A stretch of 40,644 bases of DNA from a virus. Below are positions 1-17,008 of this stretch, one piece after another. Position 1 is the stretch's first letter. The number at the start of each line of letters is the position of its first letter. The position numbers and the translations under genes are program-made. The stretch is taken from UHGV virus genome UHGV-0357162. One strand, written 5' to 3'. The notes under the pieces are model-generated. The model was given only the letters and a program-made list of their open reading frames with translations, was not told where the DNA came from and made no database searches.

Positions 1-575
1 ACCAACCCGGACTTGTTCCCCTTATAAAGTGGGAACGTGCCAAGGACCTTTCCGCCTAGTGTTAGTTGAAGTGTCGCCGCGTTGGTATTGTTCTGAACGG
101 GGAAAACGATAATCGGGGTTCGTAGCGTCCAGTCTGTACCTCCATTAACAAAAAACGTCGAGGGAAGTTCCAGCGTCAGTGCGTTTGCAGTGCCACCAGC
201 AACACCCGCAATATAATGACCGCTCTGAAGCTGCGCTATCTGTACGAAATAGTTTTCCGAACCACGCGTGGCAAAGTTAGCCACAACGTCATTAAGGGAC
301 CAACCTTTCGCGGTCGTTCCTTCCTGCCCACGAATGACTTTCAACACATCACCGCTTACCGATACCAGGTGACAAATCTCAAATGCAGACTCTTTATTAT
401 CGGTAAGCGTAATTTTTGCATAGACGCGTTGCCCGTTCGATTTATTTTCAAAATCGGCAGAAAGCAATTTTGCAAATTTAGCTCCCGTGCCCGGCATCAC
501 CGGAATATCAGTCTGAATCGTCGTGATATCGCCAGCCAGTGCTGAAACAACGTTATTGCCAAATCCAAGAATCAT
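1..575 (-). CDS. putative tail fibre / host-specificity protein, N-terminal part (partial; continues past window start)
   Basis: Minus-strand frame open from ATG at 573-575 to the window edge; N-terminus MILGFGNNVVSALAGDITTIQ; ATGA stop/start overlap with the upstream gene; sits after the J-like and I-position genes. Confidence 0.4.
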   Translation of the reverse strand, partial: MILGFGNNVVSALAGDITTIQTDIPVMPGTGAKFAKLLSADFENKSNGQRVYAKITLTDNKESAFEICHLVSVSGDVLKVIRGQEGTTAKGWSLNDVVANFATRGSENYFVQIAQLQSGHYIAGVAGGTANALTLELPSTFFVNGGTDWTLRTPIIVFPVQNNTNAATLQLTLGGKVLGTFPLYKGNKSGL

Positions 576-1198
576 TTTTGAATCACCGTTGTTGCATAGG
601 AATAAATAAAAGGGAGTTTTACATATTTCTGGTCAATGGCATCTTTAAGAAAATAGCCTATGCCATCGCCATACTCTGGTATCTGAATAGAAAAAACACT
701 GTCCGATACAGTCACACTCACATCAAAAGTATGCTGCAATGGCGGGTCTATTCCGTTTTTCCCATGAATGAACCGTGCCACACGGCGCTTTAACCAGTCA
801 ATGCAGAAATGCGAACCGTCAGCCTTATAAAAATTCCAAGTTAATATTCGCTTGAAATAATCATCCGGAACATACGATGCCTGCCCCGGAACATAATTCC
901 GCATTGCCGCATAAGGGATTGTATTGTATTCAATGGTATCGTATGCGCCGCGTGCAATAGCCTCCTCGGAAACCTGTAGTAAAGGCCTTTCAACGCCATA
1001 AATCCCGAGTGCAATCCAGTCCAGCAACTGCCCGGTTATTGATTCCGATGTCCAGCATGGCAATGCCAGATTGTTGAGTGAGTCGAGGTATTCCTGAGCA
1101 ATTTCATTGTATGCATCAAAGAACGCAACAACATTCGGATCATCTCTGTACTGCACAAATGGATAAGCAGGGAGAATTTTCTCAGTCAGATATTGCAT
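572..1198 (-). CDS. tail/baseplate protein in gpI position (hypothetical)
   Basis: Track ORF 572..1306; likely start at MQYLTEKIL (1198), overlapping the stop of the J-like gene; position between J-like gene and fibre. Confidence 0.4.
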   Translation of the reverse strand: MQYLTEKILPAYPFVQYRDDPNVVAFFDAYNEIAQEYLDSLNNLALPCWTSESITGQLLDWIALGIYGVERPLLQVSEEAIARGAYDTIEYNTIPYAAMRNYVPGQASYVPDDYFKRILTWNFYKADGSHFCIDWLKRRVARFIHGKNGIDPPLQHTFDVSVTVSDSVFSIQIPEYGDGIGYFLKDAIDQKYVKLPFIYSYATTVIQK

Positions 1199-2408
1199 GC
1201 TTGTTGACCTGAACCTGTGATGCCACCGTTGAAAAATAGGAATAGGTATCGCCATAAACCAGGCTTGTGTCTTTCGCCGGAAGAACAATATGGCCGTTAA
1301 TACCAATGCTCACACTGATTGTTGAGATCAACGTCGCATCAACCAGCAACCTGACGGAACTGGTAAAAATATCCTGGATACGCAGAAGATTTATCGGGTG
1401 TCCGACTTCAATTGAATTGATGTAATCAGCAACGTTTTGCTGCACAGCCATAGCAATACCCGCCGGATCAACATAATCATCAGACACCGTGTTCCAGGTG
1501 ATTAGCACCATGACGTTTTGTGATGACGGGATAACGAACGGCACCTGATAAACGTCCGGCGAAACGGTTATTGAAACCGTGCGTTTTTCCACTGCCGCAC
1601 CGGATGGATTGCTTACATCGTTGGTCAGTTTCGAAATATCCGGTACAGATTTGTAAATCGCATAAGCCACATCATACGGATCACCGCCACCAACAACCGC
1701 AACCCATTTCCCCAGCGACGACTGCCGAAAAGAAATCAGGTTTTCTCGCACACCGTTTACTGATTTGAGCATCGCTTTAAAGCAATCCGGTGTTCCCTGC
1801 ACACCAAACATGCCGGACTCCATGACTTCGGCGCGGTAAGATGCCCACGTTTGCGCCTCCTGACCTGGCATCCCTGCGGTAAGGTTCGTGCATTTTACAG
1901 GCTGGTCTTTTGGTACTGATGTAATGACCTGCGTCACGGTCCCTTCCGGTACAGCCCATGAGCCTGACGTTGTGGCCACACAGTAAACTGGCTCAGTCTG
2001 CCCGCTTTCCGGTATCACAGTATCGCGGGAAACCGCATACTGGTAGTTACCGTCACCAACCACAAATCCTTTAGGGATACCAAACCCCGGCAACGCCTCA
2101 AACACCACGTATACCGCCGTATTTGTACTTAATCCCTTCTGTGCTCCATATATGTTTCCGAGTTGCATCAGTAACGGAATATTCGCGCCGTATGGGCTTA
2201 CAGAGTTAATAAGGTCCACCCGCGCCTGGTCTATTAATGCCAGCGCCCCTACTGCCGTGCTGGCAAGGTCTGTAATAAGTCCTGCCGGAAGGTTGGCTGT
2301 ATATCCAGGTACTTTTTCAGCAACTCTGGTGATAAGATTCGCGAGCAAATCATTGGGTGGCGTAGGCTGCGCACCCGCACTGGTCATAGTAATTGGTATT
2401 TCTGACAT
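1182..2408 (-). CDS. baseplate J-like protein
   Basis: 408 aa; position and composition resemble the baseplate J family; compare in-window Mu gp47-like protein at 37690..38769. Confidence 0.55.
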   Translation of the reverse strand: MSEIPITMTSAGAQPTPPNDLLANLITRVAEKVPGYTANLPAGLITDLASTAVGALALIDQARVDLINSVSPYGANIPLLMQLGNIYGAQKGLSTNTAVYVVFEALPGFGIPKGFVVGDGNYQYAVSRDTVIPESGQTEPVYCVATTSGSWAVPEGTVTQVITSVPKDQPVKCTNLTAGMPGQEAQTWASYRAEVMESGMFGVQGTPDCFKAMLKSVNGVRENLISFRQSSLGKWVAVVGGGDPYDVAYAIYKSVPDISKLTNDVSNPSGAAVEKRTVSITVSPDVYQVPFVIPSSQNVMVLITWNTVSDDYVDPAGIAMAVQQNVADYINSIEVGHPINLLRIQDIFTSSVRLLVDATLISTISVSIGINGHIVLPAKDTSLVYGDTYSYFSTVASQVQVNKHAISD

Positions 2409-2422
2409 ATATCCCCTATATA

Positions 2423-2442
2423 AAAACCGCCGAAGCGGTTTT
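2423..2442 (-). terminator. rho-independent terminator downstream of the DUF1311-like moron
   Basis: Hairpin AAAACCGC-cgaa-GCGGTTTT; on the minus strand the stem is followed by TTTTTATAT; lies between the moron stop (2451) and the J-like start (2408). Confidence 0.5.
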
Positions 2443-2450
2443 AAGTTAAC

Positions 2451-3197
2451 TTATTTTGCCTGTTTCATTTTTTCCACCCTCTCAAGCATTCTTTTTACAT
2501 TTGATGGAGGATAGTTAAATTCATCGCCGTCTCCAAAAGAAATTTTTATAGGCTTCATTTTCATAACCAACTCTTTCAGAACTGCTTTACCAATTTCAGT
2601 TTTTGGCACTATAAAACCATTTCCATACAAGCATGATTTATAAGTTTTATAATATTCACCATTAATCAAAATTGGTGGATATTCTAATGGGCCATCAATT
2701 TGCACTGAATTATCGCAAAATCCATTACCTTTAGATTTTGAAGCAATAAAAATAGCTATTGTTCCATCATCGCCATACATCAGGAATCTATTTTTACTAA
2801 CACCTTCCAATGGAGGTAATATTATCAGTGCACCATCAATATACCATTCAGCGTAATTCTCTGATTCATTGATTATGTTCTCATTAATTTCATTTAAAGA
2901 TGAATATTCCCTGAATGCATTAGAATACCATTGTCGAACACATGATTCTGTTTTGCACTTCTCTCTTTCATTCCACAAGTCTGAAACAATTTTTCTAAAA
3001 GCTTTCTTATCAGTGCTCTCTAACTTTACTTTTTGATATAAAGAATTTAATTTATCATCAAGTTCAGATAATTCACTGTTGTTGCAAATTAACTTTTCAG
3101 AATATGATTTAGCTTTCGAGCAATCAAAAGATACTGCATTCGCAGTTCCTATTTGTAATAAAAAGGTAAACACTACAAATAATTTTAACTTAGACAT
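2451..3197 (-). CDS. secreted DUF1311/LprI-like protein (moron)
   Basis: Signal peptide MSKLKLFVVFTFLLQIGTANA; Cys-spaced motif FDCSKAKSYSEKLICNNSELSELDDKLNSLYQKV ... WYSNAFREY typical of the DUF1311 (lysozyme inhibitor LprI N-terminal) fold; GGAG RBS; markedly AT-rich relative to neighbours. Confidence 0.55.
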   Translation of the reverse strand: MSKLKLFVVFTFLLQIGTANAVSFDCSKAKSYSEKLICNNSELSELDDKLNSLYQKVKLESTDKKAFRKIVSDLWNEREKCKTESCVRQWYSNAFREYSSLNEINENIINESENYAEWYIDGALIILPPLEGVSKNRFLMYGDDGTIAIFIASKSKGNGFCDNSVQIDGPLEYPPILINGEYYKTYKSCLYGNGFIVPKTEIGKAVLKELVMKMKPIKISFGDGDEFNYPPSNVKRMLERVEKMKQAK

Positions 3198-3534
3198 CCT
3201 TAATCTCCTTATAAAACAGGAGAACAAATTTTACCCATTCTTAATGTCTGTTCAAGTTCATACTTTACAACCGCGCCCAGTTGAGTATGATTGGACGCAT
3301 GAGGCGTCGAAACCTCCCCCAAAAGCTGATTACCCAGCACCCTACAATGTGTTGGTTTTTTTATGCCTTTTTTTTGTGATGGCAATATGTGCGATCACAA
3401 CCCCGATCAATGTCGGGAGGGCGACGAATACAACACCCGAAAGGGGAATAAGTCCGCGGTATCTTTTGGGCCGTTTCGAACCTCCCGGCGCCACTACGTT
3501 AGTGGCAATTCGAAAAAAGCCAAAAGAGGTTACT

Positions 3535-4095
3535 ATGACCACCCAACTCATCACCGTGTTCAACGGAACCATTTCGAACGAAACCATCCTTCTATGCAAC
3601 GCTCGCGATCTGCATGCCTTTCTCGAAGTAGGTAAACGCTTTGCCACTTGGATTACCGAACGAATCAGCGAGTATGAATTCGTAGAAAATCAGGACTTTT
3701 TGATTATTTCCCAAAATCGGGAAAAAATCGGTAGAGGCAGACCAGCCAAAGACTACCATCTCACCCTGGACACCGCCAAAGAGCTGGCTATGGTCGAACG
3801 CAACGAAAAAGGACGCCAGATCCGCCGATACTTCATCGAGTGCGAGAAGAAGCTGCGCGAAGATACCACCAGCACACAATCCCCTCTGAATGTTGACATC
3901 ATCATGCGCGTCAGAAACGGCTCGGTTACCCACATTGAGCACCACAAATCAGGCTCAGTTATAACCACAGAATGGGCAATTCACTTACTACGCAAAAGTG
4001 GATGGATTGTCATGCCACGCGATGAACTTCTTAACACGCCACTGGCCCAATTGATACCCGAAAACTTGCCTCAAACCGGAACCTGCGTCCGGTAA
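3535..4095 (+). CDS. phage anti-repressor, AntA N-terminal domain plus KilA-C-like C-terminal domain
   Basis: Start MTTQLITVFNG with RBS AAAGAGG; motifs ATWITERISEYEFVENQDF (AntA-like) and DYHLTLDTAKELAMVERNEKGRQIRRYFIECEKK (KilAC-like). Opposite strand to the surrounding tail genes; the long track ORF 3079..4095 is an upstream extension. Confidence 0.7.
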   Translation: MTTQLITVFNGTISNETILLCNARDLHAFLEVGKRFATWITERISEYEFVENQDFLIISQNREKIGRGRPAKDYHLTLDTAKELAMVERNEKGRQIRRYFIECEKKLREDTTSTQSPLNVDIIMRVRNGSVTHIEHHKSGSVITTEWAIHLLRKSGWIVMPRDELLNTPLAQLIPENLPQTGTCVR

Positions 4096-4418
4096 CTGGT
4101 TCCGTTAAAAAACACAACATCGATGTTATAGGTGGGGTTCTCTGCCCCATCTACTTTTGAAATTGCCAGCGATGCAAAATACCCGGCATACTGTTGCTGA
4201 ACCATGTTCACATAGTAGTCCGGGTAAATCTGCTGCACGATGCACTGCTGCGCTGGAATGCCGTAATTCGCGTAAAACGGCGACTCCCCCAACCCCAGCT
4301 TTAACGTCTGAATGAGCGTCGTCAGCCAGCCGTAGGAGAAATCACCGTTGGCGTCTGACTCTACCGCCACCCATTTTTTGTTGCCGTTCGCGTCGGTGAC
4401 GCGGCCCCATGTTCTCAT
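4071..4418 (-). CDS. hypothetical tail-module protein (gpW position)
   Basis: Track ORF 4071..4451; likely start MRTWGRV at 4418 with GAGGG RBS; no recognisable gp25/W motif, so function unassigned. Confidence 0.4.
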   Translation of the reverse strand: MRTWGRVTDANGNKKWVAVESDANGDFSYGWLTTLIQTLKLGLGESPFYANYGIPAQQCIVQQIYPDYYVNMVQQQYAGYFASLAISKVDGAENPTYNIDVVFFNGTSYRTQVPV

Positions 4419-4425
4419 CGTGCCC

Positions 4426-4572
4426 TCACCACCATCGGATCTGGCCAACAAAATACCCAGACGCCAGAATCAGAAAGACCAACCAGATAAGTAAAAACTT
4501 CCAATTGGGAAATTTCTCGCCCATAACTCGAATCTCAACTAGTAATTTATAAACAATGAAAAGAAACTTCAT
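4426..4572 (-). CDS. small hydrophobic peptide, paralog A (48 aa from ATG 4572, or 32 aa from ATG 4524)
   Basis: MKFLFIVYKLLVEIRVMGEKFPNWKFLLIWLVFLILASGYFVGQIRWW; AAGGGA RBS before 4572; paralogous to 4691..4789. Confidence 0.4.
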   Translation of the reverse strand: MKFLFIVYKLLVEIRVMGEKFPNWKFLLIWLVFLILASGYFVGQIRWW

Positions 4573-4690
4573 ACAAATCCCTTTGTAACAATTACTTATA
4601 CCAAGTCATTCTATGCTTGAGTTCACGTAGCAAATCATCCATGAAGTAATTTGTTGTTTTTTCATTGCTATATGTAAAGTTATGTAAAAA

Positions 4691-4789
4691 TTACCGCCAC
4701 CGGATCGCCTGAATCAAAGCGGATAGTCCAAATAAGAAAAACACACGCCATATCAACAGGAATTTCCAGTTGGGTAATCTTTCGCCCAT
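4691..4789 (-). CDS. small hydrophobic peptide, paralog B (32 aa)
   Basis: MGERLPNWKFLLIWRVFFLFGLSALIQAIRWR; AAGGAG RBS 9 nt upstream; shares MGE(K/R)xPNWKFLLIW with paralog A. Confidence 0.4.
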   Translation of the reverse strand: MGERLPNWKFLLIWRVFFLFGLSALIQAIRWR

Positions 4790-4806
4790 TTCTCGTAACT
4801 CCTTTA

Positions 4807-4971
4807 TCAGTTTTTCAGGTAAATCAATGTACCCGCCACTAATGCAGTACAAATGATCCAGGCAACAGGCGTAAGTACGTGACGAATCCCTCGGCATACC
4901 GCGATTATCCTCGCAGCCTTATCTGCTCCTTGCGGAGTTGTCTCAGCCTTAAGAATCAGTTCGCTATCCAT
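4807..4971 (-). CDS. small membrane protein (54 aa)
   Basis: MDSELILKAETTPQGADKAARIIAVCRGIRHVLTPVAWIICTALVAGTLIYLKN; polar N-terminus and one predicted TM segment; below the ORF-track length cutoff; start overlaps the end of the upstream mini-ORF. Confidence 0.35.
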   Translation of the reverse strand: MDSELILKAETTPQGADKAARIIAVCRGIRHVLTPVAWIICTALVAGTLIYLKN

Positions 4972-5056
4972 TTAGAACCTTTATGATCTCTGCGATTCCC
5001 GGAAGAGATTTAGCAACAGCAAACCCTCCGATAACTATAAGAACTGCATAAAACAT
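4964..5056 (-). CDS. small hydrophobic peptide (30 aa)
   Basis: MFYAVLIVIGGFAVAKSLPGIAEIIKVLNG; first gene after the terminator at 5191..5224. Confidence 0.25.
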   Translation of the reverse strand: MFYAVLIVIGGFAVAKSLPGIAEIIKVLNG

Positions 5057-5190
5057 TCTTCTCAGAACCGGACTTCTTTCGAGCAATTTTAGAGCTTCCA
5101 CAATCCAGTCTCCTCCGCTAAAATTAATCACGGAAGACCTCCAAACATACGTAATTATCCCTTGCCTTATTCAAGGTCAGAAACAGAAAA

Positions 5191-5224
5191 CCCCGACTGG
5201 GCCAACAGTCGGGGTTTTCGTTTT
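5191..5224 (-). terminator. rho-independent terminator downstream of the spike-like gene
   Basis: Stem CCCCGACTG / CAGTCGGGG with 6-nt loop, A-run on one side and TTTTCGTTTT on the other (bidirectional architecture). Confidence 0.55.
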
Positions 5225-5256
5225 ATGGGTAGTATTTAAAGTGAAATGAACCGGTA

Positions 5257-5970
5257 TTAACCCGGATTTGGTTTCTTCGACGTGATCGTACTGCCACCGC
5301 TTTGAACACCAGTCACATCGTGACTGTGGCTGCTGGCGCTCACGCCGTTGATAACTGCATCTTTCTCGACCTTAAGAGGACCAATCAGCGAAGCGGTTGT
5401 ATCCTTCATCTGGGCTTTGTCCTGGACGATCGGTCCGTTGAGGTGAATTTGACCGTTCATGAAGATATCTTCGGCCTCGAGGTAAACAGCTTTCGACTTT
5501 AGCCTGATTTCTTCCGGTGCCACCGTTACCGAGCTACTGCCGTCCTCTGTTTTGATGATCGCGCCATCCGGACCGTACAAAACGATTTTTTGCGGATCTT
5601 CGTCGGACCAGTCCTTGTTTGCCAGTGGCACGAAAAACAGGGGAGTGAGCGACATCGAGTAAGAGAGCGTCGCCATACCGGTTCCCAATCCGGACACACC
5701 GCGCAGGGATACATCAGCGGCAATTGTTACTCCTCGATCACCCGGCTGTATCGGGTAACGGATATACGGGAATGTGGCGACAGGGATTGTTATCTGCGGA
5801 AAGTTGATCCCCTCTGGCAACATATCAAACTGAACGGTCACTATCTGCCCACTGACATCGACAACATGGCAGGGCAATTCACGGCCTTTAAGCTCGGCTT
5901 GCTGGTTGCCAGAACTGGTCATCATCTCCGACAGCGTTCGGAGAAACGGTAATTTTTGAGCGTTTGACAT
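5257..5970 (-). CDS. baseplate central spike protein (gpV-like)
   Basis: 237 aa; C-terminus INGVSASSHSHDVTGVQSGGSTITSKKP resembles the His-rich apex of gpV/gp5-type spikes; ATGA overlap with the upstream gene. Confidence 0.55.
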   Translation of the reverse strand: MSNAQKLPFLRTLSEMMTSSGNQQAELKGRELPCHVVDVSGQIVTVQFDMLPEGINFPQITIPVATFPYIRYPIQPGDRGVTIAADVSLRGVSGLGTGMATLSYSMSLTPLFFVPLANKDWSDEDPQKIVLYGPDGAIIKTEDGSSSVTVAPEEIRLKSKAVYLEAEDIFMNGQIHLNGPIVQDKAQMKDTTASLIGPLKVEKDAVINGVSASSHSHDVTGVQSGGSTITSKKPNPG

Positions 5971-6965
5971 TACACCCTCGCCCAGTTCTCAGCATATGCC
6001 TCAAATACCGTCACCCAGGCATCGCCATCAGCTGTCAGATACGAACCAATGTGTCTGACCGATTTCACAAGAAATTTCCCGGTGAACGTGGTCGAATTTT
6101 TTGCGATAACGCTGGGTGCCGTTGTATTAGCCATCACAATCGACGCAGCGCCAGAATATAGCCCCTCCGGCAGTTTAACCACATCACCACATCTGATATC
6201 GCCTCTCATAGGACATTTGAAACTGACGGTAAACGGCGCTATCCATGTCGGCTGCCCGACCAGTTCATGGGCATGAATTGTTTTTGGCTCCCCCCACTTT
6301 GCTGACGCGTTATCGTAAATTCGTATTCTGTCGGAAAGAATACTGATGGCAATCCCGCTGTATTTCTCATCGCGCATCATTGCAATTGAAGCACTACGGA
6401 GGACCATAGCCAGCGAACCAATATCTTCGTAGGTTCCATTCCACGGTTCCGGCAAAACGAGGCTGTCGCTGACAGTACAATCGATCAACTTATTCGGAAA
6501 TGCCTTTTGCAACGCACGGAAGATTACATCACCAACCTTTTCCCCTTTAAGCCCCTCCCCCTCGATAGAGAACGGTTTACCATCATCTGTTTTGCGTACG
6601 GTTGGATTTATTACCAGGTTTAAGGTCTGGTTCGTGCCGATCCAGTTGGCATAGGCCAGATAAATTTCGCCATAAATAACCTCACCCTGTTGCTGTGGAT
6701 TTGCCAAAGGCAATCCCTCAACAAAGCCCGCTTTCATACGGACCAGACACCCCTGCAAACTCACGCTTTGCTTCAGCATGTCGATAGGCAAACCGTATAT
6801 TGTGAGCATCGTTCCTGAATTCACTACATCAAGACCCGCTACCTCTGTGGGGTAGTGATCAATTCTGGGCGGAGTTCGTGCAGCCTGGTAGAACCTGCAA
6901 GCCTTGTGTGGCGCGGGGTATGGTGATTTAGTGTGATTCTGGGCGGATTTGTGAGAAATGACCAA
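5970..6965 (-). CDS. baseplate hub-like protein, possibly 5'-truncated at the Mu-like prophage junction
   Basis: Track ORF starts at a TTG; the first ~28 codons (MVISHKSAQNHTKSPYPAPHKACRFY) look like translated non-coding DNA and overlap repeats 6863..6946; confident coding from about residue 30 (PRIDHYPTEVAGLDVV) or from M at 6809. Confidence 0.4.
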   Translation of the reverse strand: MVISHKSAQNHTKSPYPAPHKACRFYQAARTPPRIDHYPTEVAGLDVVNSGTMLTIYGLPIDMLKQSVSLQGCLVRMKAGFVEGLPLANPQQQGEVIYGEIYLAYANWIGTNQTLNLVINPTVRKTDDGKPFSIEGEGLKGEKVGDVIFRALQKAFPNKLIDCTVSDSLVLPEPWNGTYEDIGSLAMVLRSASIAMMRDEKYSGIAISILSDRIRIYDNASAKWGEPKTIHAHELVGQPTWIAPFTVSFKCPMRGDIRCGDVVKLPEGLYSGAASIVMANTTAPSVIAKNSTTFTGKFLVKSVRHIGSYLTADGDAWVTVFEAYAENWARV

Positions 6966-6996
6966 AAACGCTTTTTTTTGCGCTTTTTTCTGGGCG
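6863..6996 (+). repeat. three direct copies of a TTCTGGGCG(G) core with similar flanks; candidate transposase-binding end sites (attL-like) of the Mu-like prophage
   Basis: Copies at about 6863..6872, 6937..6946 and 6988..6996, the first two with GTGAT...TTCTGGGCGGAxTTxGTG context; located just outside the repressor gene where Mu L1-L3 sites would be. Confidence 0.3.
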
Positions 6997-7158
6997 CTTT
7001 TGATCTGGTTCTGCTACAAACTTAACGGGTTTTAAATGCTTTTAAAAAAGTGTTTTATCCTTACCCGTTTTCCTCAATTTGTTCTCATCTGTTGTGTTCG
7101 GTTTTGTTGTGGTTATTGCTGATTAGCTAACAGCACACGCCCCGCCAAAACGAGGCGC

Positions 7159-7806
7159 TTATGCTGATTTCTTGTTTACAGGCTTAGTTTCTTGCTCCGG
7201 TGTGACGGGAACGCGATCACCTGGTGTTCCAGCACAGAAAATGGCTTTGGCGCGGCGCAAAATCTCTTTGTCATTTTCCTCATCGCCAGCTAATGCCATG
7301 CAAACAGCGTCTTTAAGCGATTGCCTGATGTTCAGGCTTTGAATGGCCTTCCTTTGCTCCTCAAGTTCGCTATCGGCTTGCTTAGTTTGCCTGGTGGGTT
7401 GCTGTAGGCGTTCCAAGATTCCTTTAATGCCCATATCGCATATTGCACTTATCAGTTGTTCCTTATCTTCTGTGGACGCTCTTTTCAATAACTCGTTAAC
7501 TAGCTCGTTTGTAATATCGGGAGAAGGCTGCGCTGTTTGATTTGATAGAGAACCTTCTTTGGCGGTGGGTTCCTCACCATAAGCGAGCCAATTTAAGCTC
7601 ACTTGTTCTTTATCTGAGATAAGACAAGCTATTTTAAAAGAAGGCTCTGTTCCTTTATGAATGTAGTTGTTTAAGGTTGAAGGGGGGATTCCCCAATCAC
7701 TCGCAGCAGTTCTGACACTACGGTTACCTATCAGCTTTACTAAACGCTCTCTGAAACTTTCTTTTCCCTGGTCGACAAAAGAAAAAGCATCATCATTTCT
7801 AGTCAT
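7159..7806 (-). CDS. prophage repressor (Mu c position), HTH DNA-binding protein
   Basis: 215 aa, transcribed divergently from the ner-like gene; N-terminal helix-turn-helix-like region SVRTAASDWGIPPSTLNNYIHKG. Confidence 0.55.
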   Translation of the reverse strand: MTRNDDAFSFVDQGKESFRERLVKLIGNRSVRTAASDWGIPPSTLNNYIHKGTEPSFKIACLISDKEQVSLNWLAYGEEPTAKEGSLSNQTAQPSPDITNELVNELLKRASTEDKEQLISAICDMGIKGILERLQQPTRQTKQADSELEEQRKAIQSLNIRQSLKDAVCMALAGDEENDKEILRRAKAIFCAGTPGDRVPVTPEQETKPVNKKSA

Positions 7807-7988: not shown

Positions 7989-8225
7989 ATGATGGTTAGA
8001 AATGAAGTAATGAACAAAGACTGGCACCGCGAGTACATCGTTGCCGCTGTGCACACCAAAGGTTTTACATTGCGTGAACTTTCTGAACGCGCTGGTCTAA
8101 AAAAAGACTCTTTAAAAAATGCACTGTATCGCTCATGCCCTAAATATGAACGCATCATAGCCGATGCTATTGGTGTGGAACCTGCGGAGATCTGGCCAAG
8201 CCGGTATGCCAGTAAGGCGGCGTAA
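7989..8225 (+). CDS. ner: Ner-like DNA-binding protein
   Basis: About 78 aa starting MMVRNEVMNKDWHREYIVAAVHTKGFTLRELSERAGL; position directly upstream of the transposase with TAATG overlap; the track N-terminal extension covers the operator. Confidence 0.7.
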   Translation: MMVRNEVMNKDWHREYIVAAVHTKGFTLRELSERAGLKKDSLKNALYRSCPKYERIIADAIGVEPAEIWPSRYASKAA

Positions 8226-10267
8226 TGTTTTATTCAGCCAATGAGCTGGCCGGTCTTCCTGGTTTGCCCGGTACAGTTCAGGGGGTGCGCTGGACGCTCA
8301 ATCGGATCACAGAGACGCACCCAGAATGGAAGCGCAAGCGCGAAGGCACCAAAGCATTCGAGTATCACATCGACTGCCTGCCCGCTGAAGCGCAGAAAGT
8401 TTTACGTAAGCGCCTGACTCATCAGGTCCTGGAAGATGCACAACTGCCCGCCGTAGTTGAGCAGAAAGCAGTTAAAAACGTCGCCGTTCGCGATGAACTG
8501 GAGGTGATGGTCAAATGCCCGGAGCTGGCATTACGCGAAGTCCAGTCACTGACCGACAAGCAAAAGGCCATCGCTGATGCGCGGATATTGCTGGCTACTG
8601 AAGTGCATAAGCTGCGCGAGTATGCCGGAATGACCAGGAAGGCCGCTTTAAAGCACATCGTTGATGGTGTGCGCATGGGGGCGTTACCTGACCGCATTAT
8701 CGAAGCAGCGAATACTGCAAATGCACGTCAGGGAAAGCGAACCGGTGTCAGCACCGGCAGCCTGGATAGCTGGTACTCCAGCTGGGTGATGGCGCGCGGT
8801 GATGCCAATCAGTTACTGGCGTTACTGGCTCCCGGTCATCATAAGGGAACACCGTGGGAGCAGGTCTGGTGGTTGAGCGATTTCTTTATGTTCTATCGCT
8901 CATGGAAGCGCCCGACTGTTGAATATGCGTATCGTGAGTTTTCAGCCTGGTGGCATGAAAAACACGCGAATGATGCGGGAATGCTGGCGGCACTGCCTTC
9001 AGTTCACGCAGTAAGACGGGTGTTAAGCAGCGTCCCGGTGATTGTTAAAGAGCGTTTCCGCTCCACCGGTTCAGCCTGGCGTTCGCTCAATCCCTTTGTG
9101 CGGCGCGACTGGACATCATTACCGGTTAATGCGGTATGGGTCGGGGATGGTCACTGTATGAAAATGACCGCGTTTAACCCCCTGACCGGCAATATTTTCC
9201 GGCCAGAAGTGACGCTGGTTATGGATGCGGGGCAACGCTTTGTTGTGGGCTGGTCACTGTCCCTGTCGGAGAACGTGATAGCCGTTGCTGATGCGTTACG
9301 TTACGGCATGGCGCAGCACGGGATACCGCTGATTTATTACTCCGATAACGGGGGCGGTGAAAAAAACCGGGTGCTTGATGCCGATATTACCGGGATTCTG
9401 CCCCGGCTGGGTGTGGAACATCACACGGGGATACCAGGTAACCCGCAGGGGCGCGGGGTGATTGAACGGGCAAACAAAGGAATACCCAAAGACGTGGCTC
9501 TGAGTTTCCAGACGTACTGCGCAAGGGATGCAGACAAGGAAACCGTAATGATGCAGCAACGGATTATGCAGTCAGCCATTAAGGCCACCCACAAAGGGAA
9601 AGAACTGACAAAACGGCAGGTTAAGGCGAGGGATGAAATCCCCACCTTTGAGCAACTGCTGGCAGCCATAGAGCTGGAGGTCAGACGCTATAACAACCGG
9701 CCACACAGCAGCCTACCCCGCAAAGAGGATGGCGAATATTACAGCCCGGCAGCGTATCGCCGGAAACTGATAAAAGAGCAGAATGTTGAAATTGATTTCC
9801 TGTCGCCGGAAGAACTGCATGAAATGTTCAGACCGGAAGTGACGCGCAAAACATTTCGCGGGGAAATTCAGTTATTCAACAATATTTATTACTCATATGA
9901 TCTGGCCGCAGAGCACGGGAATGAAGTCAGGGTCAGTTACGATATTCATGATGCAAACAGCGTCATTGTCCGGCGGGCTGATGGCTCTTATATCTGCGAT
10001 GCCATCTGGAACGGTAACAAGGTTGATGCCTTCGCTAAACCAGTTATCGAACAAAAACTGGAGAAACGCGTCAGGGGCCGCATTGCACGGGCTACGCAGA
10101 AAATCGAAGAGGCTAAACGCGAGCTTACCCCGGCTATTACGCAGAAGCCTGACTTTAATCTGGGATATGGACTGGAGCGCCCGGAGAAAAAGGAAAAAGA
10201 AGAACTTTATTTATTCGCATCTGAACGCGAGCGCAATTTAAAGAAAAACGGCACAAACAACCGTTAA
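8225..10267 (+). CDS. A: Mu A-type DDE transposase
   Basis: 680 aa; N-terminus ANELAGLPGLPGTVQGV resembles the MuA DNA-binding N-terminus; DDE-core-like VWVGDGHCMKM; followed by the MuB-like ATPase. Confidence 0.9.
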   Translation: MFYSANELAGLPGLPGTVQGVRWTLNRITETHPEWKRKREGTKAFEYHIDCLPAEAQKVLRKRLTHQVLEDAQLPAVVEQKAVKNVAVRDELEVMVKCPELALREVQSLTDKQKAIADARILLATEVHKLREYAGMTRKAALKHIVDGVRMGALPDRIIEAANTANARQGKRTGVSTGSLDSWYSSWVMARGDANQLLALLAPGHHKGTPWEQVWWLSDFFMFYRSWKRPTVEYAYREFSAWWHEKHANDAGMLAALPSVHAVRRVLSSVPVIVKERFRSTGSAWRSLNPFVRRDWTSLPVNAVWVGDGHCMKMTAFNPLTGNIFRPEVTLVMDAGQRFVVGWSLSLSENVIAVADALRYGMAQHGIPLIYYSDNGGGEKNRVLDADITGILPRLGVEHHTGIPGNPQGRGVIERANKGIPKDVALSFQTYCARDADKETVMMQQRIMQSAIKATHKGKELTKRQVKARDEIPTFEQLLAAIELEVRRYNNRPHSSLPRKEDGEYYSPAAYRRKLIKEQNVEIDFLSPEELHEMFRPEVTRKTFRGEIQLFNNIYYSYDLAAEHGNEVRVSYDIHDANSVIVRRADGSYICDAIWNGNKVDAFAKPVIEQKLEKRVRGRIARATQKIEEAKRELTPAITQKPDFNLGYGLERPEKKEKEELYLFASERERNLKKNGTNNR

Positions 10268-10285: not shown

Positions 10286-11179
10286 ATGAGTTTAATTACG
10301 CAATTAAATGACGTAATGGCCCGTCGCGGCTATACGCAGACCCACGTCGCCCGTGCTATTGGTCGTAGCAGCGCCGTTATCAACCAGTATTTACAGGGTA
10401 AATATCAGGGCGATATGGCTGATATTGAAGAACGCATTTCTGCCTTTGTGACCCGTGAGCGGGAAAAGGAAAACAGCCGCCGTATTAAAGCGAAATTTGT
10501 TGCCACCGGTATGGCTGCCAAAGGACTGGAAGTGCTGGCCTATGCTCACCTGGAATGTGAAATCTGCGTACTGTATGGCGCGGCAGGTCTTGGCAAAACA
10601 ATGATTCTGCGTGAATACGCCGCCAGAAACCGGGATGCGGTCCTGATTGAAGCTGACCCGGGCTATACAGCCAGAACACTGCTTGAGGAGCTGTGCCGCC
10701 AGCTGGGGGTAAAAGTTCGCGGCAATATCCACGAACTGATTGATGCATGTGTGCGAGAACTGCGTGATTCCGGTCGCCTGCTGATGGTGGACGAGGCTGA
10801 ACTGCTCCCCTATCGCGCACTGGAGGTTCTGCGCCGTCTGCATGACAAAGCGGGTATCGGGATTGTCCTGGCGGGTATGCCACGCCTTCTGATTAACCTC
10901 AAGGGACGTCGCGGTGAGTTCGCCCAGTTATACAGCCGTGTGGCGCTGGCGCTTAACCTGGGCGATACGCTGGCGCAGGAAGATTTTAACCAGATAGCCA
11001 CCGGGCTGATGCCGGAAGCAGCAGAACCGGAAATCAGCGAGGCGCTTTATACACGTTCGCTGGGTAATGCCCGCCGCCTGTTCAAACTGGCGCGTGGTGT
11101 GTACCGGATTTGTGATATCAGCGATGCACCGGTCAGTGTGCAGGCCATTGATAAATTCGCAGAAATGTTAATTCACTGA
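10286..11179 (+). CDS. B: Mu B-type AAA+ ATPase target DNA activator
   Basis: 297 aa; Walker A LYGAAGLGKT and Walker B LLMVDEAE; N-terminal HTH; immediately follows the transposase. Confidence 0.85.
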   Translation: MSLITQLNDVMARRGYTQTHVARAIGRSSAVINQYLQGKYQGDMADIEERISAFVTREREKENSRRIKAKFVATGMAAKGLEVLAYAHLECEICVLYGAAGLGKTMILREYAARNRDAVLIEADPGYTARTLLEELCRQLGVKVRGNIHELIDACVRELRDSGRLLMVDEAELLPYRALEVLRRLHDKAGIGIVLAGMPRLLINLKGRRGEFAQLYSRVALALNLGDTLAQEDFNQIATGLMPEAAEPEISEALYTRSLGNARRLFKLARGVYRICDISDAPVSVQAIDKFAEMLIH

Positions 11180-13176: not shown

Positions 13177-13893
13177 ATGAACATGAAAGATAAATACATT
13201 GCCAAAATTAAAAAGCTGTTACGCCTTGCAAGAGGAACATCAAGCCCGGAAGAAGCCGCTAACGCTATTGCAAAAGTCCAGGCTTATATGCGCCAGCATG
13301 GCATCAGCGAAAACGACGCGGAATTGTTCGACATTCAGGAAGCTGCCAGCGCAGGTGCGCCGAGTGATGCCAGTACACCGCCGCGTTATATGCACATCCT
13401 GTGTGACCTGGTCTGTAAAGCCTTCGGTGTCGAGTGTTACATCTCCGGCGAATACCGGGCTTCTGGTTCACTCAAACGTTACGTGCGTTTTTATGGTCCT
13501 GACAGTCGCCCGGAAATTGCGGCATACGCGTTTGATGTGCTTTCCCGTCAGATGATGGCTGAACGCAAGAAATATCAGGATAAACACTGCAAACGTTGCG
13601 GCCCGTCCACGCGGGTGGCCCGTGGCGACCAGTTCTGCGAAGGCTGGGTCTTTGGTGCCCGTGATGTCATTGCGGTGTATGACGTCTCCCCGGAAGAAAA
13701 AAGCCGCCTTGAGCTTTACAGAAAGAACCTGCACAGCACTAAGGGACTGCGCGACGGGGATATGCGCACAGCTAAAGCGTGTCGGGGTGCAGAGTTTGCC
13801 GCTACTGCCGGTTTTATCGCCGGGAAAAACGCCAGGCTGCATCAGGGGGTTAATGGTCAGAGCAACAGACCGCTGGCACTGGGGAGGGGGTAA
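13177..13893 (+). CDS. DUF2786-like protein with Cys-rich zinc-finger-like region
   Basis: N-terminus IAKIKKLLRLARGTSSPEEAANAIAKVQAYM matches the DUF2786 pattern; CKRCGP ... C motif; 238 aa. Confidence 0.5.
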   Translation: MNMKDKYIAKIKKLLRLARGTSSPEEAANAIAKVQAYMRQHGISENDAELFDIQEAASAGAPSDASTPPRYMHILCDLVCKAFGVECYISGEYRASGSLKRYVRFYGPDSRPEIAAYAFDVLSRQMMAERKKYQDKHCKRCGPSTRVARGDQFCEGWVFGARDVIAVYDVSPEEKSRLELYRKNLHSTKGLRDGDMRTAKACRGAEFAATAGFIAGKNARLHQGVNGQSNRPLALGRG

Positions 13894-13895
13894 CG

Positions 13896-14123
13896 ATGGC
13901 TTTTAAACTTCTCAGTGTTACCGAAGCAATATACCAGCCTCCCGGAGAACGCCACGAATACAGGATGAATGACGGTAGCGCGGCGGTTGAGTTCCCTAAA
14001 TATCCGGGGGATTCCCGGTGGCGGTTCTATGACAGTGCGGGACGCCGGATTATTAAAAGAACCGTGCACAACGCCATGAAAGCCGCTGTAGAACGTCACA
14101 AAAGGAGGTTTAACTGCAAATGA
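13896..14123 (+). CDS. hypothetical protein
   Basis: 75 aa ORF in operon context. Confidence 0.35.
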   Translation: MAFKLLSVTEAIYQPPGERHEYRMNDGSAAVEFPKYPGDSRWRFYDSAGRRIIKRTVHNAMKAAVERHKRRFNCK

Positions 14124-14344
14124 ATATTGAATTTTATGACTACGGAGTCACCGCAAAAATTATTGTTACCTGCTGGTTCTGGGAGTTCCGCCGCTATTGC
14201 CGGGTTGTGGATGCGGCGCTGTTTGTGGCACCTGAAGTGCGCCATCAGAGTGGCGGTGGCCTTTTAATGAAAACCGTCATCACCGGTAAAACGGTTCCGA
14301 TGTTACGGGCGTTTAAAGTGGCAAAACAGGAGGCGGCGCAGTGA
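14120..14344 (+). CDS. hypothetical protein
   Basis: 74 aa ORF overlapping the upstream stop. Confidence 0.35.
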   Translation: MNIEFYDYGVTAKIIVTCWFWEFRRYCRVVDAALFVAPEVRHQSGGGLLMKTVITGKTVPMLRAFKVAKQEAAQ

Positions 14345-14529
14345 ACCAGCAAACCAGAATAAGCGAGAAGAGCCTGACCAGACTGATTGCCGATGCGGAC
14401 AAGGTGCTGGAGCGGAACACCCCCGTTGCCGATGAGGAATGGTGGCAGGATTTCCGGGCCGCAATGCTGGAACTTCAGGAACGCCGCAGGGCTGGTAGCG
14501 CAGAGCCGATAGTAAATACAGGGGAATGA
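14341..14529 (+). CDS. hypothetical protein
   Basis: 62 aa ORF overlapping the upstream stop. Confidence 0.35.
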   Translation: MNQQTRISEKSLTRLIADADKVLERNTPVADEEWWQDFRAAMLELQERRRAGSAEPIVNTGE

Positions 14530-14533
14530 AACG

Positions 14534-14710
14534 ATGAAAAACCGTAAAGCAAAACGACTTCTTTTACAGCGACCTGTGCGTGTAGTGGAGCTGGTTATCA
14601 GCAACCATAAGATAGCGGTACTCCATCCATTTGGTCAGGTGGCTTTTGCCGCAAAGCGTAAGCCTACTGCGTCACAGAACAGGCGGAATAAAGGGTACGC
14701 AGTACGATGA
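14534..14710 (+). CDS. small basic protein, tandem copy 1 (58 aa)
   Basis: MKNRKAKRLLLQRPVRVVELVISNHKIAVLHPFGQVAFAAKRKPTASQNRRNKGYAVR; AGGGGAA RBS; first 22 nt near-identical to copy 2. Confidence 0.3.
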   Translation: MKNRKAKRLLLQRPVRVVELVISNHKIAVLHPFGQVAFAAKRKPTASQNRRNKGYAVR

Positions 14711-14883
14711 AAAACCGTAAGGCAAAAATTCTGTTAGCTCGCAGAAACGGCTTTGATGTCTGGCGATGGTTGAGGATTAGTAACAGACGAGTGAGATTGA
14801 CGGGGTGTTGCGGGGTGATGGGGCACAGTTGTTGCAAAAAGCCCAGCGCGGCGCAAAACCGCAGGAAAAATCACGGTATGTAA
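14707..14883 (+). CDS. small basic Cys-rich protein, tandem copy 2 (58 aa)
   Basis: MKNRKAKILLARRNGFDVWRWLRISNRRVRLTGCCGVMGHSCCKKPSAAQNRRKNHGM; ATGA overlap with copy 1. Confidence 0.3.
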   Translation: MKNRKAKILLARRNGFDVWRWLRISNRRVRLTGCCGVMGHSCCKKPSAAQNRRKNHGM

Positions 14884-14895
14884 AGGAGGTACCAG

Positions 14896-15306
14896 GTGAA
14901 GAAAATGATTTTTGTGGCGGCATTGCTAACCATTACCCAACATACGCAGGCTTCAGCAGTTATTGTGGCATCTGCCGCTGCGACCACGGCTGCTGTAGCT
15001 GCTGCAAACTCTGCGAATATCGCAAGCCAACAGGAGCGGGATGCTGCTAACGCATCAGCCAGTGCTCTCCCGATTTCTGTTAAGGGCAGTAAGCAACATC
15101 TGGGGTTCATAACGTGCGGTAAGCGTTCTTATGAAGCTGTAGGCTCACTGGGATGTACGGTATATGGCGACAGTGAGAGCAGAGAAATTCCATGGAAAAC
15201 GTGGCCCGGATACGTTCTTGGCTCGAAGCTCCCGGCCAGTTATGAGGTAAACGCCGTGTCGTTTGATCACTATAACGGCGTGGCAACTGTCTATTTCACA
15301 TACTGA
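14896..15306 (+). CDS. secreted protein with signal peptide (moron-like)
   Basis: GTG start after AAGGAGG RBS; MKKMIFVAALLTITQHTQASA signal peptide; Ala/Thr-rich linker; two Cys pairs. Confidence 0.5.
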   Translation: MKKMIFVAALLTITQHTQASAVIVASAAATTAAVAAANSANIASQQERDAANASASALPISVKGSKQHLGFITCGKRSYEAVGSLGCTVYGDSESREIPWKTWPGYVLGSKLPASYEVNAVSFDHYNGVATVYFTY

Positions 15307-15411
15307 GGCCCGGCATGAAATTTTCTGAATCACGGAGCAACAACACGATGAAAGCCATCACCGTAACTCGACGTTCCTGATTTCGCGGGTTGTTTAAACA
15401 GTAATCAAATG

Positions 15412-15457
15412 CAGACCAAAACATGTGTTTTGGTCTGCCAAAAGTGATGTTTTGGTC
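15412..15457. promoter_or_regulatory. operator-like array: perfect 26-bp palindrome CAGACCAAAACATGTGTTTTGGTCTG plus a third TGTTTTGGTC half-site 11 bp downstream
   Basis: Perfect dyad 15412..15437 and direct repeat 15448..15457, spaced about two helical turns; overlaps the start of the next ORF. Confidence 0.4.
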
Positions 15458-15739
15458 ATTATGAAGATTGAACAAATCGGAATGGCAGCTTTCAGGCAAC
15501 AGGCTGAAAGCGGTGGCGTGGATGAGTTCGTCGTGCAGCGGTTCGGTGGTGTGTATCACCTCTTCGCTGTGAATCGCCACGCCGGGGTGTCCTATTTTCT
15601 ACAGGAACGCCGTGGCGATTACAAGACGTGGCTGTCTCTTGATCGTGCCGCCACGTTCCTGTCAGGAATTGGCGTTTCACGTTTTACCGTGCGTTTTGAG
15701 GATAACAAACATGCTGAAAAAGATGATCGGAGCCATTAA
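15425..15739 (+). CDS. hypothetical protein (start uncertain: GTG 15425 or ATG 15461)
   Basis: Track ORF; the 5' end overlaps the palindrome, so ATG 15461 (MKIEQIG) may be the real start. Confidence 0.35.
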   Translation: MFWSAKSDVLVIMKIEQIGMAAFRQQAESGGVDEFVVQRFGGVYHLFAVNRHAGVSYFLQERRGDYKTWLSLDRAATFLSGIGVSRFTVRFEDNKHAEKDDRSH

Positions 15740-16106
15740 AGCCGGTCAGGCGTATCTGGGGTGGGATGATGTCCTTTATCGCCAGACGCTGGCCCGCCTG
15801 ACCGGTAAAACCAGCACCACACGCTGCAACCTCGATGAACTGCGCATCATCCGGGAATACATGCACGAACAGGGATTTCCGCGCAAGGCCCCCGCCGGTA
15901 AAGGTCGCCGCCCTCGTGTTGCAATGAGCAGAAAATCGGTATTATCCAAAATTGAAGCGTTGCTGGCTGATGCCGGTCGTTCCTGGGCGTATGCAGAAGG
16001 ACTGGCATCTCACATGTATAAGCAACATGTGATCGAATGGCTGACGGATGAACAGCTTTTTGGGGTGATGGTGGCGCTGGTTAAAGATTCAAGGAGACGT
16101 AAATGA
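15711..16106 (+). CDS. gemA: GemA-like (Mu gp16 family, DUF1018) protein
   Basis: Start MLKKMIGAIKAGQAYLGWDDVLYRQTLARLTGKTS matches the conserved N-terminal pattern of GemA/gp16-family proteins; the longer track ORF starts at 15612. Confidence 0.55.
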   Translation: MLKKMIGAIKAGQAYLGWDDVLYRQTLARLTGKTSTTRCNLDELRIIREYMHEQGFPRKAPAGKGRRPRVAMSRKSVLSKIEALLADAGRSWAYAEGLASHMYKQHVIEWLTDEQLFGVMVALVKDSRRRK

Positions 16107-16441
16107 AAAAACTGTTATTACTTATTCTGGCTTTATGTTTTACAGGAATATCCCATGCTTCTGATTCTGAGGAAGATTTGATCAAAAAAACATTACAGGG
16201 CGATTATCAGGCACAACGTAATCTGGCTTATTCATACATGAATGGCTGGGATGATATTTCAAAGGATACCATCAGAGGATGCGCTCTCAGGAAGGTTATT
16301 CTCTTAACACAAGCCCAAGCTGACATTGGCGATTATGGAAATGAAGCCATAGATTGCCGAAAAGTGCATCCAACAGATAACCAGAAAGTATGGGAGTATG
16401 TCAGAGGATACCTGGTGTTGATAAACGAGAATAAAAAATAA
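16103..16441 (+). CDS. secreted small protein with signal peptide (moron)
   Basis: MKKLLLLILALCFTGISHA signal peptide; AT-rich; followed by its own terminator. Confidence 0.5.
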   Translation: MKKLLLLILALCFTGISHASDSEEDLIKKTLQGDYQAQRNLAYSYMNGWDDISKDTIRGCALRKVILLTQAQADIGDYGNEAIDCRKVHPTDNQKVWEYVRGYLVLINENKK

Positions 16442-16453
16442 TATGAACAAAAA

Positions 16454-16477
16454 CCTTCGCAAACGCGGAGGTTTTTT
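16454..16477 (+). terminator. rho-independent terminator after the secreted-protein moron
   Basis: CCTTCGC-aaac-GCGGAGG stem (one G-U pair) followed by TTTTTT. Confidence 0.5.
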
Positions 16478-16483
16478 ATGGTC

Positions 16484-16511
16484 TGTACAGGCGATCATGT
16501 ATGGCTATAAT
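16484..16511 (+). promoter_or_regulatory. candidate sigma70 promoter for the mor-like gene
   Basis: TGTACA, 16-nt spacer, TATAAT, about 30 nt upstream of the ATG at 16541. Confidence 0.3.
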
Positions 16512-16540
16512 AACAGTAAGTTATTACCGGAGACGCCATC

Positions 16541-17008
16541 ATGCAGACCTTCAGTGAAACAGATCTTCGCGATGCGCAGGCACTGCTGCCCGATTCCGTG
16601 CAGCAACTGATTAGCGTGATTGGCTTCCCCGCCCTGACCCGGTTAATCCGTTCTTTTGGTGGCGTGACGTTAAGCGGTAAAACCGGCGCACACGCCGAAC
16701 GCACCGGCGGCGTCCATGCCCTGTTACATGATGTTCTGACCGAAGACGAAATCAACAAACTGATCCGCTTTCTTGGCGGTGCTCCGTTTTACATTCCCCG
16801 TTGCGATCATGCGTTACGTGCCCTGCGTAACACCCGTTTTATGGCTGATTTACAGCAGCATGTAAAAGACGGATGCTCACACCGGCAGGCGCTGGCACTG
16901 CTCTGTCCCCGTTACGGCATTTCAGACCGGTACGCATGGCAGCTGATACACCGACGACAAAAACAGACTTCGCTGAAAAGCCCCACCCAGGTGGGGCTTT
17001 TTGATTAA
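16541..17008 (+). CDS. mor: Mor/C-family transcriptional activator
   Basis: 155 aa; position after the GemA-like gene; C-terminal HTH-like region (RQALALLCPRYGISDRYAWQLIHRRQ) as in the Mu Mor/C family. Confidence 0.6.
   Translation: MQTFSETDLRDAQALLPDSVQQLISVIGFPALTRLIRSFGGVTLSGKTGAHAERTGGVHALLHDVLTEDEINKLIRFLGGAPFYIPRCDHALRALRNTRFMADLQQHVKDGCSHRQALALLCPRYGISDRYAWQLIHRRQKQTSLKSPTQVGLFD

Follow-up and report, generated by a model that had tools for sequence, protein, structure and literature searches.

Gene and genomic setting

The stretch of DNA analysed (the window; UHGV-0357162, 40,644 nucleotides) is a Mu-like transposable prophage of Escherichia coli, and a prophage 97.6% identical to it is inserted in alx in E. 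coli E423. The gene studied here lies on the plus strand at 14896-15306, an ORF of 136 aa with a GTG start (14896-14898) and a TGA stop (15304-15306), whose product is MKKMIFVAALLTITQHTQASAVIVASAAATTAAVAAANSANIASQQERDAANASASALPISVKGSKQHLGFITCGKRSYEAVGSLGCTVYGDSESREIPWKTWPGYVLGSKLPASYEVNAVSFDHYNGVATVYFTY. The Shine-Dalgarno sequence AAGGAGG (14883-14889, plus strand) is separated from the GTG by a 6-nt spacer; both the strong ribosome-binding site (RBS) and the GTG start are located where the original prediction had placed them. The GTG is conserved in all DNA homologues examined, and in E423 the orthologue (WP_160392512.1) is called as a CDS by PGAP, as a hypothetical protein.

Pfam matches upstream of the gene identify a CI-type repressor (7159-7806, minus strand), MuA (8225-10267), MuB (10286-11179), DUF3164, and DUF2786/DUF7168 (13177-13893), and matches downstream identify GemA (15612-16106) and Mor (16541-17008). 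With these genes on its two sides, the earlier assignment of the gene to the semi-early region is correct. A crude consensus scan detected no sigma-70-like promoter from 13800 to the gene, and we found no plus-strand terminator-like site downstream of it, the sole hairpin there (15411-15438) being terminator-like on the minus strand only. The gene thus does not appear to be flanked by the promoter and terminator of its own that characterise a moron, and the exchanged cassette in which it lies (see below) brings an RBS only. We therefore expect the gene to be expressed with the early operon that the repressor controls.

Family membership and distribution

The protein matches the HMM of PHROG 8805 with residues 1-136 on profile positions 1-136 (E = 1.5e-81, 272 bits). 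PHROG 8805 is the protein's own family and carries no annotation, so that membership gives no function. We found no meaningful match to the protein in Pfam, NCBIfam, PADLOC, or PDB sequences (in PADLOC-DB, zero families at E ≤ 1), and it fits no characterised family among those that could be tested. A literature query by family accessions and PHROG identifier returned no paper that mentions them. The family has an entry as an anonymous PHROG, and its kind (a small periplasmic accessory protein of phages) is familiar; the family itself and its fold are uncharacterised.

Word-indexed searches recovered approximately 110 clusters at 90% identity, from Escherichia, Salmonella, Shigella, Citrobacter, Rahnella, and phages. 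All are described as "hypothetical," with a single UniRef name, "Prophage exported protein." When 1.84 billion representatives were searched exhaustively with a profile, 15 clusters reached E ≤ 1e-3, of which about 11 are true family members. Two eukaryotic proteins (P0073 and P0075; 898 and 1662 aa) were rejected as spurious, having only a short "NIGFIKCGSKESVG" motif repeated seven to eight times; the repeats resemble the β1/Cys motif of the family and reach E values of 1e-15 to 1e-21, which we judge to be a short-motif coincidence boosted by repetition.

Among 185,579 genomes, one per species, there is one locus only, on a short metagenome-bin contig. This contig (L017; JAFAFN010000164.1, 3228 bp) belongs to a bin labelled "Actinomycetes bacterium," and since it carries an 87%-identical copy together with the usual downstream neighbour, it is probably a mis-binned fragment of an enterobacterial phage. 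The IMG/VR viral contigs contain 61 loci, and the gene is present in 64 of 5426 complete E. coli genomes, in 47 chromosomal and 19 plasmid places. Judged by these searches, the family is tiny and is restricted to phages of Enterobacterales. The original prediction had called for a homologue search and was to be abandoned if there were no conservation, or no export signal; the search returned more than 100 relatives. Together with the PHROG match, the PGAP call, and a dN/dS of 0.07-0.3 in the C-terminal domain, these homologues mark 14896-15306 as a real, conserved gene, far beyond chance.

A cassette shared by unrelated phage backgrounds

When the region 13800-16600 was compared with other genomes by blastn, the stretch from 14882/3 to 15325 was the sole one common to P1-like, lambdoid, and Av-05 backgrounds. 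These blastn boundaries delimit a horizontally exchanged cassette (14882-15325, plus strand) that consists of the RBS, the ORF, and 19 nt. Its nucleotide identity is 86.7% to a P1-like plasmid, 86.5% to a lambdoid prophage of the e14/CPS-53 type, and 78.1% to the lytic Vequintavirinae phage Av-05. A tblastn search of 50,697 phage records gave matches in Av-05, KLB16, KLB22, and KW1E_UTAR only. Distant homologues (43%-49% aa identity) occur in the ∼45-kb siphoviruses of the proposed Ca. Mavericviridae, beside a C5 methylase and near terL (PMC11845039), and a 47%-identical subfamily is found in P1-like phage-plasmids near hot/humD/phd-doc. Classified by marker proteins, most of the 61 IMG/VR loci are P1-like; fewer are lambdoid (yfdQR) or Mu-like, and Av-05 itself is among them. 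In every context the gene is co-oriented within a block of small early or accessory genes, and three loci (L008, L009, and L010) show an overlap between its start and the stop codon of the preceding gene.

The ORF that comes next, ∼12 nt downstream, encodes a protein of phrog_6026/368 (unknown function) in 40 of the 61 IMG/VR loci. This neighbour follows the gene in P1-like, lambdoid, and Av-05 backgrounds, and the Mu-like loci keep only its first five codons: in the window, DNA alignment identifies the remnant ATG AAA TTT TCT GAA at 15315-15329 (plus strand). We considered phrog_6026/368 as a conserved partner and rejected it: it is recurrent in non-Mu contexts but deleted in Mu-like phages. 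The Mu-like loci have kept the secreted-protein gene alone; the gene therefore functions without this neighbour.

The distribution bears on one of the two roles that had been suggested for an exported early protein, that of a lysogenic-conversion factor. Such a factor would be made by the resident prophage and would benefit its host, for example through an altered surface or stress resistance of the lysogen. Bor and SodC, for instance, are secreted prophage proteins and classic conversion factors, many accessory genes of P1-like plasmids are constitutively expressed, and the gene is carried by temperate elements in the 64 complete E. coli genomes counted above. Yet neither the promoter-like site 5′ of the gene nor the plus-strand terminator-like site 3′ of it that would give such expression was found; in Mu-like and lambdoid prophages it is embedded in repressor-controlled early operons; and it also occurs in phages that are virulent and so form no lysogens, namely, Av-05 (PMC4463512) and the Ca. 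Mavericviridae phages, which are described without an annotated integrase (PMC11845039), as is the case in KW1E_UTAR. We consequently disfavour conversion and consider it very unlikely. The expected dependence on the early operon and the presence in virulent phages argue instead for a role in the lytic cycle.

Export signal and localisation

The N terminus has the sequence features of a Sec/SPase I signal peptide, which we took to be a positively charged n-region, a hydrophobic h-region of 7-15 residues, a polar c-region with small residues at −3/−1, and a total of ∼18-30 aa. On the basis of this rule-based analysis, Hessa ΔG values, and alignments, we predict a signal peptide of 19 aa (14896-14952, plus strand), composed of an MKK n-region (+2), an 11-residue h-region (MIFVAALLTIT), and a QHTQA c-region. 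There are two candidate cleavage sites with small residues at −3/−1: TQA|SA and ASA|VI, the latter extending the peptide through 14958. The original prediction had chosen the second (cleavage after QASA), which is equally legal in this sequence. In the family, however, A19 is invariant in both alignments (A1 and A2), and several homologues have Val or Thr at position 21, so that cleavage two residues earlier, after A19 (xQA|S), is favoured; SPase probably cuts after residue 19.

The signal-peptide architecture is recovered by rule in 20 out of 20 diverse members, despite their sequence divergence: all have one or two Lys/Arg, a hydrophobic core (mean Kyte-Doolittle value 2.0-3.3 in the best nine-residue window), and a site of the AXA type between residues 19 and 23. 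The authors of the Klebsiella phage KLB16 genome independently annotated its homologue as one that "contains ... a signal peptide domain." Hessa-scale values for the best 19-residue windows range from +0.6 to +5.2 kcal/mol, to be compared with +2.4 and +3.4 kcal/mol for the cleaved signal peptides of OmpA and MalE, −3.2 and −0.2 kcal/mol for the anchors of LepB and TolR, and +2.2 kcal/mol for the SAR domain of T4 RI. The calculated hydrophobicity of the N terminus thus resembles that of cleaved signal peptides, unlike that of membrane anchors. The same comparison disfavours a second transmembrane helix in the Ala-rich stretch as well as a stable N-terminal anchor.

Because these values are near that of the T4 RI SAR domain, they are compatible with a SAR-like, transient tethering of the N terminus. 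This raises the question of whether the protein could be a regulator of lysis timing analogous to T4 RI: a periplasmic, possibly SAR-tethered, antiholin-like or signal-sensing protein. The protein is small, phage-made, and predicted to be periplasmic, and the stretch following the signal peptide is rich in Ala, Ser, and Thr, as in SAR domains. Linkage to a lysis cassette is nonetheless absent from every background: the holins of this prophage lie ∼2 kb downstream, past gemA and mor, and elsewhere the gene is found in ea-type accessory regions. The carriers moreover have unrelated holins, which makes a common holin partner unlikely. A function in lysis timing is accordingly, in our estimation, highly improbable.

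For the protein of the window a lipoprotein reading was rejected: it has no Cys before residue 74 and no lipobox ([LVI][ASTVI][GAS]C, which closes the signal peptide of lipoproteins). A lipobox-like LS[AS]C17 does appear in 28 of 114 members, all of which belong to a 134-aa subfamily of P1-like phage-plasmids (residues 14-17; P0069 and P0079-P0099, e.g., L004 6001-6405). Close variants of this subfamily, 141-152 aa in length, have LSAS in its place and longer Ala/Thr linkers. The details of localisation may therefore differ between branches, and part of the family may be lipid-anchored.

These features lead to a broader alternative, in which the domain acts at the membrane surface through the Ala-rich spacer, tethered by an uncleaved signal anchor or, in some branches, by a lipid. 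The lipobox-like subfamily would fit such a topology, and so would the length polymorphism of the linker described below (44-85 aa for the N-terminal part), which resembles that of a spacer in need of an anchor; the hydrophobic A-V-I-V after the AXA site also lengthens the apolar stretch, and in Ca. Mavericviridae the 19-residue ΔG falls to +0.6 kcal/mol. Against this, the protein of the window lacks an N-terminal Cys, its h-region has only 11 residues and is broken by Q15, H16, and Q18, and ΔG values of +2.4 to +6.3 kcal/mol are far from those of the true anchors (−3.2 and −0.2 kcal/mol). The AXA site is kept in all branches, and in the sister variants of the lipobox subfamily Ser replaces the Cys. 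Tethering therefore seems unlikely to us. Export to the periplasm is supported by the conserved signal-peptide features, the hydrophobicity, the annotation made elsewhere, and two invariant Cys residues, which fit a periplasmic disulfide. The export signal that the original prediction proposed is thus borne out, and we regard export of the protein to the periplasm as very probable.

Linker and C-terminal domain

Composition and dN/dS delimit a low-complexity linker rich in Ala, Ser, Thr, and Gln at residues 20-61 (14953-15078, plus strand). Ala accounts for 16 of the 39 residues from 22 to 60 (41%); the Ala-rich low complexity reported earlier is present, although the composition is better described as Ala/Ser than as Ala/Thr. 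The signal peptide and linker together measure 44-85 aa in most members, and a few outliers (34 aa and 93-124 aa) probably reflect truncation or mis-called starts. In the Ca. Mavericviridae branch the linker is short and contains Pro. Immediately behind the predicted cleavage site, the motif A-[VI]-[VI]-[VI] (residues 20-25; 14953-14970) is found in every branch of the family, in forms such as SAVIVAS, AVIVHH, VVIT, SVIAAG, NVIIS, and VVVAVA, while the rest of the linker is not conserved. This motif could be an N-terminal β-strand of the mature protein.

The remaining 75 residues (62-136; 15079-15303, plus strand) form a globular domain that is delimited by AlphaFold2 (AF2) models, dN/dS, and invariant columns, and that carries the signature GF(I/V)TCG ... 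S(L)GC ... IPW..WPGY.LG..LPASY.V.A(V/I)SFD.YN..ATVYF.Y. The Cys-containing globular part noted in the original prediction is evident here: Cys74 (TGC, 15115-15117, plus strand) and Cys87 (TGT, 15154-15156, plus strand) are both invariant in the family alignments, and we infer a disulfide between them. A full-length AF2 model built on 20 sequences was unusable (pLDDT 45), with the linker at low confidence. Modelling of the domain by itself, with an alignment of 34 sequences, supplied the structure prediction called for previously, a confident α/β model (pLDDT 91, pTM 0.78). In domain numbering it has strands at 8-13, 19-21, 25-29, and 34-38, a helix at 42-50, and strands at 56-63 and 68-74; the predicted order is thus β1, three short strands, the helix, and a C-terminal β-hairpin. 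Fold searches with this model gave no significant structural neighbour.

Selection on the two parts was compared by pairwise Nei-Gojobori dN/dS among six DNA homologues (15 pairs). In the domain, dN/dS is 0.07-0.3 relative to the window copy and reaches 0.54 over all 15 pairs; in the linker it is 0.25-1.1, with diverged copies compared. The lowest values are seen for residues 100-136, at ≤0.08 in 14 of the 15 pairs and 0.20 in the remaining one (L008 vs. L002), with dS of up to 0.5. These residues are identical in the Mu-like and lambdoid copies compared; the P1-like copy has one substitution, and the Av-05 copy differs at three positions. As estimated from these alignments, the domain shows strong purifying selection and the linker relaxed constraint. 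Variation within the domain clusters before β1, in the loop between Cys74 and Cys87 (where position 79 is hypervariable), and in the next hairpin. Positive selection in these variable loops is not demonstrable with six sequences, the ω estimates being noisy (0.09-1.5) and accompanied by signs of intragenic recombination.

Comparison with known periplasmic and exclusion proteins

Several phage proteins act from the envelope against further infection. Cor (of T1, φ80, and N15) and Llp (of T5) are envelope lipoproteins of infected cells or lysogens that are specific for FhuA and block further infection; the protein studied here, in contrast, has no lipobox and is common to phages that use different receptors. 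The superimmunity protein Sim of P1 is exported and processed and is much larger than the 14896-15306 protein, to which it is linked by the fact that relatives of the gene ride on P1-like phage-plasmids. In the passage of PMC8546580 that concerns it (with its refs 56-57), Sim is an exclusion protein thought to block the entry of superinfecting phage DNA. We have no indication of homology to it, in that the tblastn comparison with the 50,697 phage records gave no P1 record.

T4 Spackle (gp61.3) is an early, cleaved, disulfide-bonded periplasmic exclusion protein with 75 aa in its mature form (PMC7677548). Both it and the present protein come from early phage genes and have an export signal and a small mature form with one disulfide (predicted here). 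This is a functional analogy only: Spackle is an α-helical bundle that inhibits the gp5 tail lysozyme, whereas our domain is predicted to have six β-strands and one helix, and there was no sequence or fold match to Spackle in the tblastn search of the 50,697 phage records or in the fold searches. More generally, these two kinds of search and PADLOC revealed no homology to characterised exclusion proteins.

We also considered the periplasmic DUF1471 (YhcN-BhsA-McbA, PF07338) and RcsF-type domains of the host. [quoted passage not shown] Relative to it, the phage domain has an additional three-strand insertion, putatively bridged by the disulfide, and two Cys, whereas DUF1471 proteins generally have none. 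The DUF1471 HMM matched neither the protein nor any of 22 family members at E ≤ 10, and hhalign against seven E. coli DUF1471 proteins gave a probability of 3.9% over 19 columns, in the C-terminal hairpin only, so that homology is not supported. RcsF was rejected (hhalign probability 0.6%, with nothing meaningful aligned); it is a two-disulfide lipoprotein, and the present protein is not a lipoprotein. At most, the model suggests a weak fold resemblance to these domains, to which profile comparison lends no support.

An alternative to exclusion is that the phage takes over the host envelope. The domain would then mimic or engage the DUF1471/RcsF-type stress network (Rcs via IgaA, activation of DegP, envelope permeability), stabilising the envelope or reprogramming its stress responses during phage replication. 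The occurrence of the cassette in phages with unrelated tails and receptors, which fits a host target, could reflect such a nonexclusion role equally well; we assign this possibility a low probability.

Proposed role

Our preferred hypothesis is that the protein modifies the envelope of the infected cell, most plausibly so as to exclude other phages or block their entry. During lytic growth the gene would be transcribed as part of the Mu-like early (Pe-type) operon, and its product would be exported by Sec with removal of the signal peptide, most likely after Ala19. The mature periplasmic protein (∼115 aa) would comprise a flexible Ala-rich spacer followed by the 75-aa α/β domain with its Cys74-Cys87 disulfide. 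The nearly invariant face formed by the C-terminal helix and hairpin would bind a component of the envelope that is conserved in Enterobacterales, and the infected cell would become refractory to other phages, at the step of envelope penetration or of DNA entry, much as with T4 Spackle or P1 Sim but with no evolutionary relationship to either. Known exclusion proteins mostly act on the entry machinery of their own phage, which counts against this hypothesis. Here, the different receptors and tails of the carriers and the frozen residues 100-136 point to a conserved component of the host envelope and not to a phage-specific target; such a target would explain why the cassette is of use to phages that differ in receptor and tail type. 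Exclusion, or a block of entry, is a reasonable hypothesis, built on analogy, that we put forward tentatively.

A more far-reaching version would make the cassette a new fold and a broad, host-directed periplasmic effector, binding a conserved enterobacterial envelope sensor or biogenesis factor (e.g., of the RcsF/IgaA axis, or a partner of DUF1471) through the frozen C-terminal face and giving heterotypic protection, or envelope reprogramming, against many unrelated phages. This would explain why the gene is traded among Mu-like, P1-like, lambdoid, rV5-like, and T1-related phages, but we view it as decidedly doubtful.

Phage early regions are the main reservoir of genes for host takeover, exclusion, and anti-defence, and to our knowledge very few of their periplasm-acting products have been characterised (Spackle, Sim, and Cor/Llp). 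The present family is small, compact, easily cloned, and strongly constrained, and it travels as a minimal cassette of RBS and ORF across phages, both temperate and virulent, that infect E. coli, Salmonella, and Klebsiella. It is accordingly a tractable candidate for a new phage-host or phage-phage interaction at the level of the envelope. Should broad exclusion prove true, it would be relevant to the design of phage-therapy cocktails against strains with Mu-like or P1-like elements; should there be no measurable effect, the family would be one more catalogued hypothetical protein. Its distribution across lifestyles is unusual; no surprising biology is demonstrated here.

Additional features of the window

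Directly 5′ of the gene, at 14534-14883, are two tandem, paralogous, basic ORFs of 58 aa (MKNRKAK...). Both match phrog_1380 (unknown function), and a 24-nt direct repeat is common to their starts. The megablast matches found in P1/RCS47, Stx2c phages, TL-2011b/c, and phiV10 (87%-96% nucleotide identity) fall on these ORFs and not on 14896-15306.

Between the gene and the next gene downstream, at 15411-15457, there is a perfect palindrome with a 12-bp stem, GCAGACCAAAAC-ATGT-GTTTTGGTCTGC, followed by a third half-site, GTTTTGGTC. The palindrome falls on a mosaic boundary in prophage L008 (homology restarts at 15413) and may either bind a protein or mark a recombination boundary.

A second ORF with a signal-peptide-like N terminus (112 aa, MKKLLLLILALCFTGISHA...) is located at 16103-16441 between gemA and mor, its start overlapping the gemA stop. 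It belongs to phrog_5882 (unknown function) and has no match in Pfam, NCBIfam, or PADLOC. The ORF is missing from the otherwise collinear prophages L001 and L008, in which homology is broken at 16087-16472. The best sigma-70-like site of the region 13800-16600 (16484-16511; TGTACA-16-TATAAT, 10/12) follows this inserted ORF, just 5′ of mor.

The first part of the window (1-7100) contains other phage-type genes, including a Baseplate_J-like ORF (1182-2408, minus strand) and an AntA/AntB antirepressor-like ORF (3079-4095), from which it seems that the Mu-like element adjoins another prophage or a prophage remnant. Rfam gave no match at or near the 14896-15306 locus, and within the antirepressor-like ORF it identified sRNA-Xcc1 at 3412-3497, with 72.5 bits, above the gathering score.
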